A stretch of DNA of 64,000 nucleotides from Candidatus Bathyarchaeia archaeon (lineage in GTDB: Archaea > Thermoproteota > Bathyarchaeia > Bathyarchaeales > Bathycorpusculaceae): assembly GCA_049515895.1 (NCBI GenBank), contig JBEKTQ010000008.1:45241-109240 (forward strand). The letters are read 5' to 3'. The notes below the pieces were generated by a model. It was not told where the DNA came from. It did no database searches and saw only the letters and a list, made by a program, of their open reading frames with translations. The translations under genes were made by a program, and so were the position numbers. This document shows, in pieces, positions 22,674 to 51,709 of this stretch. The stretch's first letter is position 1. The number at the start of each line of letters is the position of its first letter.

Positions 22674-22800
22674 CATGCATTCTTATTTTTTTTAGCCCTG
22701 AACATTCGTCAAACATTTTTGGTGCTATAAGCGCCGGTGAGCTTCGGCAAACAGGTTTCTGAACATGTAAGTTTTTATCCCTAAAAATCGACTTTACCTA

Positions 22801-23136
22801 GTGAAAAGTATGAGCGATTACATCATCATATTGGTTACTGCGAAAGACAGGGAGGAAGCTGATAAGATTTCGCAGTTGCTTGTGAAGGAACGTTTGATCG
22901 CTTGCGCGAACATTGTTAATCCAGTGTCTTCGTTTTTTCATTGGGTTGGGAATATTGAGAAGGCGGAGGAGTGCTTGATTGTTATGAAGTCGCGCAGGGA
23001 TTTGTTTGCCGAGGTTGTAGGGCATGTTAAGCGTTTGCATAGTTATGAGGTTCCTGAGGTTTTGGCTGTTCCGATTGTTGATGGGTCGAAGGCGTATTTG
23101 GATTGGATGAGTGTTGTGCTTAAGCCCAAGCTATAA
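22801..23136 (+). CDS. cutA: Divalent-cation tolerance protein CutA
   Basis: LIACAN, HSYEVPE, YLDW. Confidence 0.93.
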   Translation: MKSMSDYIIILVTAKDREEADKISQLLVKERLIACANIVNPVSSFFHWVGNIEKAEECLIVMKSRRDLFAEVVGHVKRLHSYEVPEVLAVPIVDGSKAYLDWMSVVLKPKL

Positions 23137-23211
23137 TGTACGTTTTTGTGCAGATAAGCCTTAAATAATACATTGAAGTATGTTTCTGAACCATAGGGAG
23201 CTCAAATCTAA

Positions 23212-23259
23212 ATGAGGAATTACATTTGGCGCAGCCGCCACACAAACCAAACCAGCTAA
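23212..23259 (+). CDS. trpE leader u[18 protein letters not shown] containing one Trp codon; the trpE frame is +1 relative to it
   Basis: ATG AGG AAT TAC ATT TGG CGC...TAA; GGGAG upstream; first ATG after the TATA-like box near 23160. Confidence 0.6.
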   Translation: MRNYIWRSRHTNQTS

Positions 23260-24625
23260 CCCCCTAAAAATAAAGAAAATCACCCTAAAAGAGCAACCCC
23301 TCGAAATATTCTCAAGACTCCAAAAAAAATACCGAACAGCCTATCTTTTGGAGTCAATCGAAGGACCGAAAAAGCTTGCACAGTACTCATTCATCGGGTT
23401 CGACCCAAAAATAACCATAATAGCCAAAAACGGCAAAGCCAAAATCAAAAACGAAAAAACAGGCGAAACAACCACTGAGAAAACAAGCGACCCACTCCAA
23501 ACTTTAGAACGCCTCCTCAAAGAAGAAGCGGTTCCAAACACAGAATTCCGATTTGTAGGCGGAGCAGTCGGCTACATTTCTTATGACTCCGTCCGTTACT
23601 GGGAACGCCTGCCCCAGACCAGCGTGGATGACCTCTGCTTTCCCGACTTGGAAATGGGCATATTTGACAACGGCTTTGTTTTCAATCATGTAGAGAAACA
23701 GGCCTTTTACTATTACCGTGGCGAGAATCGGCTGACTGAAGTTGAAGGACTACTCAGGCAACAAATCGATCCGGAGCAGTTGTGGTACACGCAACCTAAA
23801 GTAAACATTAAAAAAGAAACGTATGAAGCCGCGGTGGAAAAAGCGAAGCAATACATAACGGCAGGCGATATTTTCCAAGTTGTCCCATCAAAAAGATACC
23901 AGTTCCAAATAAAGGGTAACCTAATCCCGTTCTACCAGACGTTAAGAACCATTAACCCTTCGCCATACATGTATTACTACACTTCAGGCGAACGCCAAAT
24001 TGTTGGCGCTAGTCCAGAAATGCTTGTCCGCGTCGAGAAAAGAACCGTCGAAACCTTCCCGATTGCAGGCACCCGACCTGTCGTCGAGAACCCAGACGAG
24101 AATAGTAAGTTGGTCGCTGAGTTGCTTGCCGACCCCAAGGAACGCGCCGAACACGTCATGCTTGTCGATTTGGCACGCAACGACGTCGGAAGAATCAGCA
24201 AATATGGAAGCGTCCACGTACCCGAGTTCATGCAGGTCCACCAGTACAGTCACGTGCAACATATAGTCTCCCGAGTAGTGGGGCACCTCAAGGACGGCCT
24301 TCAAAGCTACGATGCCTTACGCGCTGTTTTTCCAGCGGGAACAGTTTCTGGAGCTCCAAAGGTGCGAGCAATGGAAATCATCGATGAACTTGAACCAGTG
24401 AGGCGTGGGCCATACGCTGGAGCCGTTGGCTACTTCTCCTACAACGGCAACGCAGATTTTGCCATAACAATCCGAACCCTCTTCGCACAAAAGAACCAAG
24501 CGTACATTCAAGCAGGCGGTGGAATCGTGGCTGACTCAGTGCCTGAGCAGGAGTGGTTTGAAACCGAGCACAAAGCAAGGGCGCTGATGCAGGCGCTGGA
24601 GCAGGCTGGAGGCACAGGACAATGA
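23216..24625 (+). CDS. trpE: Anthranilate synthase component I (frame open from 23216; no ATG/GTG/TTG before 23348)
   Basis: [36 protein letters not shown]. Confidence 0.95.
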
Positions 24626-25209
24626 AGGTGCTAGTAATTGACAATTACGATTCGTTTGTTTACAACCTTGTTCAGTACATCGGCGAACTAGGCGGTGAAC
24701 CTGTGGTCTATAGAAACGACAAGGTAACCTTGGACCAGTTGAATGCGCTTAAATCTGACAGAATTGTGATTTCGCCAGGTCCAGGCATGCCTGAAGACGA
24801 GCGTTACTTTGGGGTCTGCACAAGAATCCTGCAAACCATGAGTCGAACAACGCCGACCTTGGGAGTGTGTCTTGGCCATCAGGGAATAATCCACGCTTAC
24901 GGCGGAAAAATCATCCATGCCAAACGTCTCATGCACGGAAAAACCTGCACTATAAAGCATGACCAAAAGGGGATCTTCGCAGATGTCCGCAACCCCTTCA
25001 CTTCGATACGGTACCATTCGCTTGCTGGAGAACGCTACTCTTTGCCGTCGTGCCTGAAAATTTCGGCAGAGTGCGTTGAAGACGGGGAAATAATGGGTGT
25101 CCGCCACGTCAAGTACCCGATTAACGGCGTCCAGTTCCACCCTGAATCAATCCTATGTGAGGACGGCAAGCTCATTATCAAGAACTTCTTGGAGGGCAAT
25201 CAGCTATGA
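24622..25209 (+). CDS. trpG: Anthranilate synthase component II (glutamine amidotransferase)
   Basis: IDNYDSF, SPGPG, GVCLGHQ, QFHPES. Confidence 0.96.
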   Translation: MKVLVIDNYDSFVYNLVQYIGELGGEPVVYRNDKVTLDQLNALKSDRIVISPGPGMPEDERYFGVCTRILQTMSRTTPTLGVCLGHQGIIHAYGGKIIHAKRLMHGKTCTIKHDQKGIFADVRNPFTSIRYHSLAGERYSLPSCLKISAECVEDGEIMGVRHVKYPINGVQFHPESILCEDGKLIIKNFLEGNQL

Positions 25210-26267
25210 TTCGGGAAGGCATTCAGAAACTCATCGAAGGCATCAGCTTAACCAGCGTCGAGTCAGGCGAAATCATGCGTGAAGTCATGTCGGGGCAGGC
25301 AACAAACTCACAAACCGCCGCGTTCTTGACCGCTCTACGGATAAAGGGTGAGGCAGTCGAAGAGCTTATCGCCTTTGCGTCAGTCATGCGTGAACAAAGC
25401 ACTCAAATTCATCCCTGTGTGATGGGCCGCCTCGTGGATACCTGCGGGACGGGCGGAGATAAAATAAAAACTTTCAACGTGAGCACGGCAGCTGCCTTCG
25501 TGATTGCTGGAGCAGGTGTTTCGGTTGCCAAGCATGGAAACAGGTCAGTGACCAGTAAATGCGGAAGTGCCGATGTGCTGGAAAAACTTGGGTTAAACCT
25601 GTTTTCCGAGCCTAAAGTGGTCGAAGCCATGATTGAAAAGGTCGGGGTTGGCTTCATGTTTGCGCCAGCATTCCATCCAGCCATGAAGTACGCGGCTGAG
25701 ACCAGACGGGAAATTGGCATCCGAACCGTATTCAACCTTCTCGGACCATTAACAAACCCCGCAAGCGCCAACGCTCAACTACTCGGTGTGTACGACCCCA
25801 AACTCACCGTTCCTCTGGCATACGCGTTGGGTCGGCTAGGATGCGAAGAAGCCATGGTTGTCCACGGGTTAGATGGTCTGGACGAGATTTCAACTGTTGG
25901 TAAGACGGCGGTTGCGTGGTTGAAGGATGGCAAAGTCACGGAACTGGAAACTTCTCCACGAGACTTTGGCGTAAAGCAGGCAAGCGTCGCCGATTTGAAG
26001 GTGTCCTCAGCTGAGGAAAGCGCGGACGCATTCTTCAGAATACTAAGCGGCAAAGTAGTAGCCGACGACTCGAAAATGGAGTTTGTGCTCGTTAACAGTG
26101 CGGCGGGAATTATCTTGGGCGGGAAAGCGGATGACTTCTTGGGCGGCATGGAGATAGCCCGCAAGTCAATAATGAGCGGCGCAGCCTACGACAGGCTAAA
26201 AAAGTTGATTGAGGCTTCGGGCGGAAACCCTTCTAAACTTGAGGAGTATGAAGCCAAGTATGAGTGA
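25206..26267 (+). CDS. trpD: Anthranilate phosphoribosyltransferase
   Basis: DTCGTGGD, KHGNRS, GLDE. Confidence 0.96.
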   Translation: MIREGIQKLIEGISLTSVESGEIMREVMSGQATNSQTAAFLTALRIKGEAVEELIAFASVMREQSTQIHPCVMGRLVDTCGTGGDKIKTFNVSTAAAFVIAGAGVSVAKHGNRSVTSKCGSADVLEKLGLNLFSEPKVVEAMIEKVGVGFMFAPAFHPAMKYAAETRREIGIRTVFNLLGPLTNPASANAQLLGVYDPKLTVPLAYALGRLGCEEAMVVHGLDGLDEISTVGKTAVAWLKDGKVTELETSPRDFGVKQASVADLKVSSAEESADAFFRILSGKVVADDSKMEFVLVNSAAGIILGGKADDFLGGMEIARKSIMSGAAYDRLKKLIEASGGNPSKLEEYEAKYE

Positions 26268-27039
26268 CTACCTTGATGTATTGGCGCGTGTCGCCCAAGT
26301 AACCATTGATAGCGAATACTACGAGATGGCAAAATCCGCAGACACTATGCACCTGAGCCTGCGCAAAGCGATTTTGCAAAGCCAAAACGTGCCGGTTATA
26401 GCAGAAATCAAAGCTGCTTCCCCTTCAGCAGGGGTAATCAAGAAGGACCTTAATCCCGGCGAGGTTGCGCGAGCGATGCAGAGAGGCGGAGCGGTAGCTT
26501 TGTCAGTTTTAACTGAGCCGAAACATTTCGACGGTAGTTTGGAAGCTTTAGCCGCTGCAAGAGAAGCAGTGGAAATTCCGCTTCTAATGAAAGACATTGT
26601 TCTCAGCCCCGTGCAGGTTTATGCTGCAGGGAAAATGGGAGCCAACGCGGTCCTTCTGATTAAGGCGCTTTTTGACCGTGGCTACTGCGAAAAAACCCTC
26701 GACGAAATGATTGATGGAGCCCACATCCTGGGGCTTGAGGTTCTGCTTGAAACCCACACTGAGGCAGAGTTTCAATCAGCTGTGAAGGCAAACGCGGATT
26801 TGATTGGAATAAATAACCGTGACCTTGCGACCTTTAAGGTAGATTTGAACGTGACAAAAAACATTTTAGAGAAAAACGGTTCAAACGGCAAACCAGTGAT
26901 AAGTGAAAGCGGAATAAAAACACCTGCCGACATACATTTCCTCCGTGAAAGCGGCGCCAGTGCTTTCCTAGTTGGATCAGCTATCATGTCAAGCAGCAAC
27001 GTGGAAGGAAAAGTCAAGGAGTTTGTAGAGGCAAAATGA
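26260..27039 (+). CDS. trpC: Indole-3-glycerol phosphate synthase
   Basis: [27 protein letters not shown]. Confidence 0.95.
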
Positions 27040-28232
27040 AGTTAACCGAATATCCAGTAGACGGAAAATACGGCAAGTACGGCGGACGCTTCGTTCCCGA
27101 AATCCTAATGGAAGCAATCAAGGAGCTTGAAGAAGCCTATGAAAAAGCGAAAAAAGACCCCGCCTTCCACAAACAGCTCGATTATTACCTGGCAGATTTC
27201 GCTGGGCGACCCACACCGCTGTACTACGCTGAAAACCTATCGAGGGAACTGGGCGGCGCCAAAATCTACTTAAAACGCGAAGACCTCGCCCACGGCGGCG
27301 CACACAAAATCAACAACACTTTGGGGCAGGCGCTGCTAGCTAAGCGAATGGGCAAGACGCGAGTAATCGCTGAGACAGGAGCAGGTCAGCATGGCGTGGC
27401 AACCGCCATTGCGTGCGCTGCCTTAGGGTTGCGGGCTGAAGTTTATATGGGCACAGAAGACTGCGAGCGTCAGCGTCTGAACGTTTTCCGTATGAAGCTT
27501 CTTAACGCGCAGGTACATCCTGTGGAGACAGGCTCAAAAACGCTTAAAGACTCGATAAACGAAGCCTTCCGCGATTGGGTAACCAACTTGGAAAGCACCT
27601 ATTACCTGATCGGCTCCGTCGTCGGACCTCACCCGTACCCGATGATGGTTCGAGATTTCCAAAGCGTCATAGGCAAGGAACTCAAAGATCAATTCCAAAG
27701 AAAAGAAGGCGGCCTTCCAAACGCGCTGGTCGCATGCGTGGGCGGCGGAAGCAACGCAATAGGCACGTTCTACCCGTTCGAAGACGACTTGGAAGTTGCG
27801 CTGTACGGGGTGGAAGCGGCAGGTGAAGGTTTGGAAACGGGCAAGCACGCGGCGTCTCTTGGCGCTGGAGCCGAAGGGGTCTTCCACGGCATGCTAACCT
27901 ATGTTTTGCAGGACAGCAACGGGCAAATCCAGAACACAAGCAGCGTTTCAGCGGGCTTAGATTACCCAGGCGTTGGACCCGAACTCTCCTTCCTCAAAAC
28001 ACTCAAAAGAGCACAGTACACTTCAGCCACTGACAAGGAAGCCGTGGAAGCTTTCCTGACCCTATCCAGAGAAGAGGGAATCCTACCGGCTTTAGAGTCA
28101 GCGCACGCCGTAGCTTACGCAATGAAACTTGCCTCGAAAATGAAGAAGAACCAATCAATCGTAGTGACTCTTTCCGGACGCGGGGATAAGGATGTCGAAA
28201 CAATCGCTGACTACATAGGTGCGAAAATATGA
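27036..28232 (+). CDS. trpB: Tryptophan synthase beta (TrpB1)
   Basis: [25 protein letters not shown]. Confidence 0.97.
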
Positions 28233-29047
28233 ACGCGATTGCAAAGGCATTCCAAAAAACCAAAGAAGGGGGAAACGGCGCCCTAATCGGCTACGTCACC
28301 GCAGGAGACCCCACACCCGAGTTGACACCCAAAATCGCTGACGCCCTAATCCAAGGCGGAGTAGACATCTTGGAACTCGGGTTACCGTTTTCTGACCCTA
28401 TAGCCGATGGACCCACAATTCAGGCGGCGAGCGTTCGAGCACTGGTTGCGGGAACAACGCCCCTAAAAGTGCTGCAGATTGCAAAAGAGATACGCAAAAG
28501 CCACGAGACGCCAATTGTAATAATGACCTACTACAATCCAGTCTTCAGAACTGGGTTGGAGAAATTTTGTCGTCTATCCAAGGAATTCATGGTGGACGGT
28601 GTCATTGTTCCCGACTTGCCGGTTGAAGAATCCGGCGACTACAAAAAGGCAGCGGCAAAGTTTGGGTTGGACACGATTTTCTTGGCCGCGCCGTCCACAA
28701 CCCCTGAGCGGCTTAAGGCTATTGTTCAGTGTTCCTCGGGCTTTCTTTACCTTGTTTCTCACTTTGGCGTGACGGGAGCCAAAACTGCAGTAGAAGATTC
28801 AACAATTCAACTCATCAAACGAGTTCTGCCAGTTACTTCAGGAAAGATCAATCTGGCAGTCGGCTTCGGAGTCTCAAAACCGCAACATGTAAAACGAATC
28901 GTTGCCGCAGGAGCTGACGGCGTAATCGTTGGAAGCGCCTTCATCGACCTAATCCAAAAAACCCAGGACGACACTGTCGCCATGCTTAAGGAGTTGGAGG
29001 CAGTAGCCTCAGAAATGAAAAAAGCCACAAAAATATTGGAAAAGTAA
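28229..29047 (+). CDS. trpA: Tryptophan synthase alpha
   Basis: [27 protein letters not shown]. Confidence 0.97.
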
Positions 29048-50085: not shown

Positions 50086-50515
50086 ATGGAAGAAGGTGTT
50101 CATAAACAGCTCCAGTGGGTTCATTATTGAAATGGCCAAAAATCTCCAATTGCGTGGCTATAAAGAGGTAACAATTGATAATTACAGATTCGACGTTGTA
50201 TGGCGAAAACGTGCAGATTCTTGTCCATTCGCAGTTTTTGAAATTAGCTCAGTTCGTGACATTTCCATAGCTGTTGCTCGATTAAGAGCTGCAAGAATTA
50301 AATTTGGAAATCCATTACTCTATCTGGTTATCGAAAAGGAAGACATTGAAAAAGCACAACAAATAATCGCAAATTCTTTCGCCGAACTATTGAATCAACT
50401 TAAAGTTCTAACGACTAAAGACATTCTAACATATAGCAAGTTGCTATCGCAATACGATGACATGATGGGCAGGATATTTCCTGAAAAACCAACTCTGTGG
50501 TTTAGAAGAAAATGA
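50086..50515 (+). pseudogene. PD-(D/E)XK-like nuclease domain, apparently frameshifted at 50116-50120
   Basis: ATG 50086 gives MEEGVHKQLQW; the +1 frame continues FIIEMAK...FDVVW...FAVFEI. Confidence 0.55.
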
Positions 50516-50530
50516 CAACCTTAAGAAATA

Positions 50531-51709
50531 ATGGTCCGGCTAGCTGACCGTAAAATGTCTAGTTTCGCCCCCGCCCCCTTTTGCCCCGAATGCAGATCAA
50601 CAAAGCTCTTTAGGGACGGTTTTCGTACTCTTAAAAATGCTATTAAAGTTCAGCGTTGGCTCTGCAGAGAATGTGGTTACAGATTTAGCAAGCCTTTACG
50701 CTTACGAAAAATTCAGCAACGGCGGTTAAATACGGCAGATGCTCTACAGTTTAGCAACCAAATATGCGCGTTAGAGGCGAAAAATTTGGAACCGCAAACA
50801 GAAATCAATACTGTTGCGGGTGAAAATCTCCAAGACAACAAAGGCAAAATCATTGAATTCGCTTGGTGGATGAAAAAACAAGGCTACAAGGAAGGCACTG
50901 TTGTATGCAGGTCAAAACTCCTTAAAGTCATGGTGAAAAGAGGTGCAAACCTGTATGATCCCGAAACAATCAAAGACGTTATTGCGAAACAAACCTGGTC
51001 TGAAGGCAGAAAAGAAAACGCAGTAAACGCTTACTCCACATTTCTAAAAATGATAGGAGGAACATGGAGCCCACCCATCTACGGAAGAATACAAAAACTC
51101 CCCTTCATACCAAAAGAAGAAGAAATTGACGCACTAATAGCAAGCTGCGCACCAAAAGCGGCAACACTACTTCAAACCCTTAAGGAAACAGCGGCCAGAG
51201 TTGGAGAAGCATGGGCGCTTCAGTGGACAGATGTTGACATTGAAAATAGAACGCTAAGAATTACACCAGAAAAAGGAAGCAATCCTCGTATATTCAAAAT
51301 TAGTCCGAAACTGATGTCAATGCTGTTAGCACTGCCACGTAAAGGCAACTGCATATTCGGAAGCTACCCTCTTCGCGGCTACAGAACGTGCTTTACAAGG
51401 CAACGCAAAAAAGCTGCGAGGAAGCTGGGGAATCCACGCTTGCTACAGATAACATTTCACACCTTTAGACATTGGAAGGCCACAATGGAATACCACAAAA
51501 CCAAAGACATCCTTTACGTAATGAAACTATTAGGGCATAAGAGCATTAAGAACACTTTGATCTACACACAACTGATAGAATTTGATGACAACGATCAATT
51601 TGTCTGCAAAGTTGCCAAGACTGTTAAAGAAGCCAGCGAACTAATAGAAAGCGGCTTTGAGTATGTCTGTGCAATGGACGACGCCAAGCTATTTAAAAAA
51701 CGTAAATAA
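50531..51709 (+). CDS. Tyrosine recombinase/integrase with N-terminal Zn ribbon
   Basis: AARVGE (R), EKGS (K), HTFRH, LLGH, IY catalytic set; ends 40 bp from the tRNA 3' end. Confidence 0.93.
   Translation: MVRLADRKMSSFAPAPFCPECRSTKLFRDGFRTLKNAIKVQRWLCRECGYRFSKPLRLRKIQQRRLNTADALQFSNQICALEAKNLEPQTEINTVAGENLQDNKGKIIEFAWWMKKQGYKEGTVVCRSKLLKVMVKRGANLYDPETIKDVIAKQTWSEGRKENAVNAYSTFLKMIGGTWSPPIYGRIQKLPFIPKEEEIDALIASCAPKAATLLQTLKETAARVGEAWALQWTDVDIENRTLRITPEKGSNPRIFKISPKLMSMLLALPRKGNCIFGSYPLRGYRTCFTRQRKKAARKLGNPRLLQITFHTFRHWKATMEYHKTKDILYVMKLLGHKSIKNTLIYTQLIEFDDNDQFVCKVAKTVKEASELIESGFEYVCAMDDAKLFKKRK

Follow-up and report, generated by a model that had tools for sequence, protein, structure and literature searches.

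In bacteria, the tryptophan (Trp) codon or codons of the short trpL leader gauge the supply of charged transfer RNA (tRNA) for Trp and set the expression of trpE and of the genes that follow it, and in Escherichia coli prfB the Shine-Dalgarno (SD) sequence stands 3 nucleotides (nt) from the site of the +1 frameshift. According to the available part of a 2016 review (PMC5009743), the prfB shift site is CUU_U with GG_GGG or GG_AGG as the SD element, Ty1 shifts at CUU_AGG_C with the +1 codon GGC being read by an abundant tRNA-Gly, and starved codons promote frameshifting in the E. coli "hungry codon" constructs cited there. Furthermore, Trp shortage has been described as promoting ribosomal frameshifting in human cells (PMC11425274, in the portion of the article available). 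With regard to trans-frame products that are specific to starvation, the same part of the 2016 review states that "no examples are known" (PMC5009743). Here, we analyze a stretch of 64,000 nt from a Candidatus Bathyarchaeia archaeon (contig JBEKTQ010000008.1), referred to as the window, in which trpE, the first gene of a Trp biosynthesis cluster, is overlapped at its 5' end by an out-of-frame leader with a single Trp codon. This arrangement, which we call the cassette, recurs ahead of trpE in much of the phylum and probably represents a programmed +1 frameshift by which the ribosome gauges how much charged tRNA-Trp is available.

Leader reading frame and putative slip site ahead of trpE

All features of the locus lie on the forward strand of the window. 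The frame-0 leader, an open reading frame (ORF) of 15 codons named ORF1 (23212..23259), begins with M-R-N-Y-I-W at the ATG at 23212-23214 and ends at the TAA at 23257-23259. The SD of this ATG is GGGAG (23196..23200), located 11 nt ahead of it, and in relatives the corresponding region presents a purine-rich G peak and predicted pairing with the tail of the 16S ribosomal RNA (rRNA). ORF1 contains a single Trp codon, TGG at 23227-23229, which is its sixth codon and stands between ATT (23224-23226) and a C. In the resulting putative slip site, ATT-TGG-C (23224..23230), AUU in the P site would re-pair on UUU, with UGG in the A site and GGC as the +1 codon. In addition, an internal SD-like element, GAGGAAT (23214..23220), ends 3 nt ahead of the slip codon.

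Relative to ORF1, the frame of trpE is displaced rightward by one base. After a TGA at 23213-23215, it remains open from 23216 onward, and its first ATG, GTG, or TTG is the TTG at 23348, which falls within the LLES motif. Read after the +1 shift, trpE would run from GGC 23228 to its stop (23228..24625). The Pfam search on this frame returned Anth_synt_I_N from residue 26 (7.6e-37) and Chorismate_bind at residues 200-453 (4.4e-98), and the presence of both domains, with trpG and its GATase domain as the next gene, identifies the product as TrpE. Our re-reading agrees in every detail with what the earlier note had reported about ATG 23212, GGGAG, the upstream ORF, and its single Trp codon, as well as about a trpE frame open from 23216 and devoid of canonical starts before the TTG in LLES.

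The comparison with prfB reveals a largely shared design. The main ORF is in the +1 frame without a start of its own, the shift site is of the NUU_U type (with ATT in the window), and an internal SD-like stimulator would be positioned a few nucleotides upstream, as judged by predicted pairing. As in prfB, the short first ORF would have no functional product alone, NUU_U (mostly CUU_U) would re-pair on UUU, the slow A-site codon starts with UG, an SD-like stimulator is near (GGGG or GAGG in the trpE cassette), and a shortage of the A-site decoder would raise synthesis, which is the same feedback logic. However, different from prfB, in which the A site holds the stop UGA and the decoder is the protein that the gene itself encodes, the release factor RF2, the trpE cassette carries the sense codon UGG, would sense charged tRNA-Trp, and yields a biosynthetic enzyme. 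Moreover, its site is located at leader codon 6, its setting is archaeal, and its P-site codon is GUU, AUU, or UUU in 59 of the 132 motif loci described below. The cassette is therefore not a member of the prfB family, even though it would be prfB-like in its working.

With Ty1 and ABP140 of yeast, the cassette shares a sense "hungry" A-site codon, a slip of CUU by +1, and GGC as the +1 codon; unlike in the cassette, the slow codon of Ty1 is set by a rare tRNA-Arg and not by the availability of an amino acid produced through the downstream gene, no SD-like element is involved, and the system is eukaryotic. With trpL, it shares a leader ORF whose Trp codon would gauge charged tRNA-Trp; different from trpL, the output would be a change of reading frame and not a choice between terminator and antiterminator, the Trp codon is single, and the leader overlaps the gene. 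Antizyme also uses a +1 shift as a metabolite sensor with negative feedback, according to the available part of the review (PMC5009743), but in that case polyamines, a stop codon, and RNA and nascent-peptide stimulators are involved, in eukaryotes. Finally, the shifts at starved Trp codons mentioned above are errors or laboratory constructs, unlike the trpE cassette.

The elements expected for attenuation of the trpL type are missing from the locus, since the region 22800-23500 holds 0 terminator-like sites, the RNA fold of 23190-23300 is no better than that of shuffled sequences (z = -0.94), and TGG is single, not part of tandem codons. The region past the slip site is A/C rich. A small hairpin, UGGCG-CAGC-CGCCA, begins at the Trp codon (23227-23240); it is private to the window and not conserved in relatives. 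A downstream RNA stimulator was ruled out on the basis of the fold score and of the private nature of this hairpin.

Conservation of the cassette and the point of frame entry

We searched 41 relatives, finding trpE in 28, together with a sample of the class (401 genomes, trpE in 183) and a sample of the phylum (401 genomes, trpE in 216). From the class and phylum samples, 120 further 5' regions were fetched, and five loci from metagenome-assembled genomes (MAGs), the informative ones among the matches listed, most of which were bacterial, were added (L031, L032, L034, L035, and L039), of which L032 is apparently one record with L200 and has the same motif. A script detected 132 cassettes, and two more at sequence edges (L121 and L232) were added by eye, for a total of 134. 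The cassette consists of a start codon, an SD-like element that would pair with the 16S tail, a spacer of 2-3 nt, and NUU-UGG-N, which reads as UUU-GGN when taken in the frame of trpE; in the canonical layout, the SD is followed after about 10 nt by ATG RGG NAT NNN NTT TGG N. Defined by this anatomy, it is conserved, keeps a constant frame relation to trpE, and is exclusive to trpE.

The cassette stands ahead of trpE in 134 of 148 loci, namely, 28/29 in the same genus, 20/20 in other genera of the family, 14/14 in other families of the order, 33/40 in other orders of the class, 34/40 in other classes of the phylum, and 5/5 among the named MAGs. Carriers from other classes include a family of complete genomes of about 1.6 Mb, whose cassette matches that of a Nitrosotenuis MAG. 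The out-of-frame start and the NTT-TGG site, whose conservation in orthologs the earlier note had proposed to check, are thus shared by the window's class and by other classes.

The leader start is ATG in 123, GTG in 5, and TTG in 4 of the 132 motif loci, and CTG never occurs. The A of the leader ATG forms the third position of differing trpE-frame codons (K, Q, L, T, and S), and a stop occupies trpE-frame codon -3 in 49 of the 132 loci. Since the trpE-frame triplet that overlaps the ATG alternates among genomes between TGG and the stop TGA, conservation here concerns the ATG and not a tryptophan residue of TrpE. The SD is visible as a purine-rich G peak at -14 to -9 in the 99 canonical loci from the class to which the window belongs. 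The leaders of these loci are 7 to 51 codons long (median, 16), their sequence past TGG is not conserved, and more than one W is found in just three of them; the shortest leaders of the canonical 5-codon form have 7 codons.

Some individual leaders deserve mention. Those of L209 and L211 stop right after the Trp codon (GTT TGG TAG and CTT TGG TAA, respectively) and so end in W. In L208 (G454, family f53), the leader has three codons before TGG (ATG TGC CTT TGG), the SD-like GGGGTAT lies directly before the ATG, and a second ATG is present in the third frame, the locus being apparently 1 nt longer than the usual form. Leader codon 4, which would occupy the E site at the slip (23221-23223 in the window), is NGY in 70 of the 99 loci (CGC, 26; CGT, 15; TGC, 12; AGT, 8; AGC, 7; GGC, 1; TGT, 1) and TAC in the window.

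No 16S rRNA was found in the 53-contig genome of the window, despite a marker completeness of 100%; the 3' end of the 16S rRNA, GGAUCACCUCCU, was taken from five complete relatives, four from the same genus and a fifth from the same order. In the 99 loci, the internal element RGGNAT, which spans positions +3 to +8 counted from the A that begins the ATG, shows G at +4 in 99, G at +5 in 92, A at +7 in 94, and T at +8 in 94. The predicted pairing of 9-nt mRNA segments with this tail presents two minima over a background of about -1.5 to -2 kcal/mol, one at the real SD (segments -17 to -14; mean, about -5.9 kcal/mol) and the deepest at segment +2 (mean, -7.7 kcal/mol), and the predicted duplexes end 2-3 nt ahead of the slip codon. 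Furthermore, in the variants that have 6-9 leader codons (6, 7, or 8 in L034, L199, L209, L211, L212, and L215 to L217), the element, of the GGTGR type, stays at a constant spacing from the slip codon, whereas its spacing from the ATG changes. Because the element would pair with the 16S tail, the conservation of the G-I dipeptide encoded over it can be explained without translating that frame, and neither a shift right after the ATG (AUG-RGG-A, giving M-GIxFG) nor a start at the AUH at codon -2 is necessary.

The site itself is invariant in form. All 132 motif loci have NTT-TGG-N, with CTT in 73, GTT in 39, ATT in 13, and TTT in 7, and in all of them the A-site codon is TGG. For phenylalanine at this position of the trpE frame, every motif locus uses TTT, compared to a TTC:TTT ratio of 792:779 elsewhere in the fetched trpE parts, as would be expected if its last T closed the UUU landing codon and at the same time opened the leader TGG. 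In the interval of leader codons 5-7, no bases other than TTTGG are invariant. The frame of TGG is always -1 to trpE in the 99 canonical loci, although the distance between the site and LLES ranges from 32 to 46 codons, and 39 of them have zero in-frame ATG, GTG, or TTG between the upstream stop and LLES. The +1 codon is most commonly GGC (56 of 99 loci). The genome of the window contains two gene copies of tRNA-Gly(GCC), and tRNAs with G34 for AUU, CUU, GUU, and UUU are present.

In seven genomes of three families (L147, L149, L207, L210, L213, L214, and L217), a TAG is found in the trpE frame directly before TTT-GGN, as in ATG GGT GAT CTA GTT TGG. The trpE genes carrying it are otherwise intact, with open frames of 460 and 457 amino acids in G406 and G208. 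It follows that, in those seven genomes, the trpE frame can be entered at the slip site only, and both the shift right after the ATG and the start at AUH -2 are excluded for them. If the site is the same everywhere, the TAG cases together with the minimum of 7 codons place the frame change during the decoding of leader codons 5-7.

The loci without the cassette serve as natural controls. In L013 (G006), of the same genus, ATG AGG AAC CAC CTT GAT AAC is in frame with trpE and lacks TGG, the locus being 10 nt shorter than its neighbor L012 up to the shared TTKQ. By its sequence, the leader ATG plainly reads as the start of trpE here; the fusion may reflect constitutive expression in this genome or a variant introduced by assembly. 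Each of the other 13 cassette-free loci (L152 to L156, L165, L180, L197, L198, L202, L203, L233, and L235), inspected by eye, has an in-frame canonical start upstream of the domain, with an SD noted for some. The cassette and an ordinary start therefore seem to exclude each other almost perfectly.

The pattern ATG[AG]GG[AGT]AT....TTTGG has one match on both strands of the 3.18-Mb genome. A looser pattern has matches in 38 of the 41 genomes of the genus, and in 30 of the 30 genomes with trpE coordinates one such match is separated by 4 nt from the trpE match downstream of it; no match was obtained in three genomes, namely, G005, in which trpE was not found, G006, which carries the fusion, and a 66%-complete genome. 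The 10 extra matches in the genus, compared to 7 for a reversed-pattern control, lead into +1 ORFs of at most 52 codons, and second loci in the genus were consequently dismissed as chance matches. To look for the same device serving other amino acids, the window's own genome was scanned for a start, an SD-like element, NTT-TNN, and a long +1 ORF, which gave 105 matches, mostly within ORFs, with a cutoff of -6 kcal/mol that misses the trpE site itself and with stops next to the slip codon left unchecked. The five best matches include no amino acid genes (Toprim, PPK2, a DUF, a protein without Pfam family, and a DDE transposase).

The earlier note had also pointed to another apparent frameshift at 50116-50120, but this site looks ordinary, as neither a slip site nor an SD-like element is evident. 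There, ATG 50086 opens an ORF of 14 codons with TGG at 50116, which overlaps an ORF at 50096-50515 that has its own GTG (50096) and ATG (50132). The latter ORF is without a Pfam family, and a phage-type integrase follows at 50531-51709.

Proposed mechanism and alternative explanations

We propose that the ribosome would start at ATG 23212 by means of the SD GGGAG and read M-R-N-Y-I, after which, with AUU (23224-23226) in the P site, the A site would meet the sole Trp codon of the leader, UGG (23227-23229). With plentiful charged tRNA-Trp, UGG would be decoded, frame 0 would be kept, and translation would stop at TAA 23257 with no TrpE made. With an empty A site, the peptidyl-tRNA would slip by +1 from AUU to UUU, helped by the SD-like GAGGAAU (23214-23220) paired with the 16S 3' tail just behind; GGC would then be read, and translation would enter TrpE. 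The overlapping stop/start junctions could pass the effect on to trpG, trpD, trpC, trpB, and trpA. The direction of such control would be right, because less Trp would give more enzyme.

That recoding at this site is needed for TrpE is very likely in light of the comparative data. For the full model, in which a programmed +1 frameshift responds to the availability of charged tRNA-Trp, Trp sensing included, we estimate a probability of about 0.7. The earlier note had interpreted the site as a slip into trpE promoted by Trp starvation, and the comparative evidence argues for this interpretation.

Several observations weigh against the model, in addition to those on transcription and on internal starts considered below. 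The slip, its assistance by the SD-like element, its response to Trp, and the downstream coupling are inferred from the sequences, and we know of no SD-like-stimulated +1 frameshift shown in archaea. The slip codon of the window, AUU, would re-pair on UUU with a first-position mismatch, more poorly than the CUU of most relatives, and the SD-like element of the window is weak (-5.6 kcal/mol). GG[AGT] AT[CTA] varies chiefly where trpE-frame codons have their third base, which taken alone would be equally compatible with translation of a G-I dipeptide, although the TAG cases described above and the SD-like pairing speak against this. In the linker of about 25 codons that follows the site, the entropy by codon position is 0.94/0.86/1.02, compared to 0.37/0.19/0.95 in the enzyme domain; given this near-flat periodicity, the case for translation of the linker in the trpE frame draws on its openness and frame keeping and not on protein-level selection. 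Moreover, a tRNA-Trp was not found in the assembly with ARAGORN (35 tRNAs, or 46 with introns allowed).

Among the alternatives, the one that survives best is a real but constitutive +1 shift, in which UGG would be merely slow and the shift would set a fixed low TrpE output or be a frozen accident. The comparative data reveal the site and not its regulation, and glass-sponge mitochondria shift by +1 at a rare UGG_(A) without a sensing role, as described in the available part of the review (PMC5009743). In the same direction, the conserved TGTACA-like boxes upstream of the trpE promoter suggest an additional transcriptional layer, which could carry all of the Trp control. However, the A-site codon is TGG in 132 of 132 loci from several classes, with no other slow codon or stop ever in its place, the cassette is found just at the first gene of Trp synthesis, and a fixed attenuator needs no codon that depends on the end product of the pathway. 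We thus regard a constitutive shift as unlikely.

Less probable still, to a degree that we would call slight, is the absence of any frameshift, with ORF1 as an independent leader and TrpE starting at the AUH at codon -2 (ATT 23219 in the window) or at an ATG or GTG at -1, -2, or -3. The internal SD-like element could then act as a Shine-Dalgarno sequence proper, with GAGG 4 nt ahead of codon -1, and the G and I of GIxFG vary mostly synonymously. Suitable starts do occur in some relatives: codon -1 is ATG in 7 and GTG in 4 of the 99 loci (11 in all), where it may bypass the shift; L032 has an in-frame ATG at -2, from which TrpE might be made independently of the shift; the ammonia-oxidizer-like genomes have an in-frame GTG at -3, which arises from the GGUG of the SD-like element; and an in-frame ATG is found at -7, just 1-2 nt past the SD, in L007, L025, and L028.

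Nevertheless, the TAG of the seven genomes bars codons -3 to -1 from TrpE there, codon -1 is mostly GCC, GTC, or ACC, which are not near-cognate starts, and the 39 loci mentioned above lack any canonical in-frame start before LLES. An independent leader would not hold a fixed frame across lengths of 32-46 codons, the protein of L013 begins at the leader ATG itself, and an invariant TTT, never TTC, would be left unexplained. In particular, starts at ATT 23219 or ATA 23270, which the earlier note had named among the outcomes that would refute its interpretation, appear unlikely, considering the TAG in seven genomes and the fact that a non-AUG codon past the site is never conserved.

It is very improbable that the frame is restored in the RNA, whether the polymerase slips at TTT or the transcript is edited there. 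Apart from the run of three T at the site, no support for it was found, and known polymerase slippage needs much longer homopolymer runs; furthermore, such a correction would leave no role for the start, the SD-like element, and the Trp codon, all of which are conserved.

Finally, the origin of the window from a 53-contig assembly and the occurrence of trpE in pieces in five genomes of the genus might suggest that the arrangement is a pseudogene, a mutation private to this genome, or an artifact of assembly. This explanation is refuted by contigs from three runs of three studies, with 0 differences and 0 gaps over 23101-23311 (one of them to 23429), by the same layout in 134 of 148 loci, complete single-contig genomes among them, and by an intact trpE ORF with all domains present. 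The indel at the site that the earlier note wished to see excluded is absent from these contigs, one of whose runs may be the source sample of the window. The stretch was found in 11 runs, all of them DNA metagenomes from peat, wetland, or sediment, with no RNA run among them. In the five genomes of the genus (G004, G010, G012, G021, and G023), trpE matches come in 2-3 adjacent pieces, pointing to indels or broken genes.

The trp operon, its promoter, and the meaning of the cassette

Downstream of trpE, the gene order on the forward strand is trpG, trpD, trpC, trpB, and trpA. The glutamine amidotransferase gene trpG (24622..25209; Pfam GATase, 2.6e-52) overlaps trpE at ATGA, and the anthranilate phosphoribosyltransferase gene trpD (25206..26267; Pfam Glycos_transf_3 and Glycos_trans_3N) overlaps trpG by 4 nt. 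They are followed by trpC (26209..27039; Pfam IGPS, 9.1e-71, from residue 43), encoding indole-3-glycerol-phosphate synthase, trpB (27036..28232; Pfam PALP), encoding a tryptophan synthase beta-like pyridoxal phosphate enzyme, and trpA (28229..29047; Pfam Trp_syntA, 1.2e-88), encoding tryptophan synthase alpha, the last two each with a 4-nt overlap with the preceding gene. Of the overlapping trpEGDCBA cluster described in the earlier note, the order holds, and the overlap is of 4 nt at four of the five junctions; at trpD/trpC, the start of trpC is uncertain, as the listed TTG gives an overlap of 59 nt. In some genomes (G022, G349, G372, G334, G348, and L010), open trpE frames of 664-668 amino acids suggest TrpE-TrpG fusions.

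The promoter element ATAAGCC TTAAATA (23153..23167, forward strand), which resembles a B recognition element and TATA box, is kept as AAGCC TTAAATA in relatives. In 72 of 85 related loci, the TATA-like box starts 45-57 nt upstream of the start codon, mostly at 48-52 nt. Directly upstream of the promoter, two TGTACA-like boxes, TGTACG and TGTGCA, about 10 nt apart, form a candidate operator (23137..23152, forward strand), and further [AG]TACA...GTAT motifs are present past the TATA in the window and in the upstream regions of L001 to L131. Of the 85 loci that have a TATA-like box, 73 carry TGTAC or GTACA in the 30 nt upstream of it. These boxes look like an operator for a Trp-responsive transcription factor, and they may resemble the operators of TrpY-type control, which consist of repeated TGTACA boxes overlapping the promoter of trpE. 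In 13 of 14 loci of family f40, which is ammonia-oxidizer-like, the distance from the start of the TATA-like box to the downstream ATG is 29-30 nt. In the usual geometry of archaeal promoters, such a distance puts the ATG at the mRNA's 5' end, which suggests that the cassette ATG of f40 opens a leaderless mRNA.

Frameshifts of the +1 type that are regulated, and leader peptides that sense the charging of tRNA, are each known, and, as far as we could find, their combination, the use of a sense codon as the sensor, and the archaeal setting are new. In our literature search, which covered titles and the beginnings of abstracts, mostly from journals without subscription, we found no description of a frameshift in trpE or at any Trp codon of a trp operon. 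It is possible to hypothesize, with somewhat less assurance than for the model itself, that the cassette is the first natural "hungry-codon" +1 frameshift to serve as an amino acid sensor, ancient and kept across much of the phylum.

A practical consequence is that gene callers will truncate or mis-start trpE in the lineages with the cassette, so that the pathway may look broken in reconstructions based on MAGs. Since the cassette has a length of about 20 nt and is present in ammonia-oxidizer-like genomes, a group with cultured members, the model is directly testable. If it is true, the cassette would represent the first regulatory +1 frameshift in archaea and a third translational principle of Trp sensing, beside attenuation and control of the T-box or TRAP type, and the design of prfB would have arisen or spread beyond bacteria and beyond stop codons. 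The post-transcriptional control of amino acid synthesis in most archaea is largely unknown; from peat and wetland archaea to ammonia oxidizers, the ribosome itself would measure charged tRNA-Trp and answer with a change of frame.

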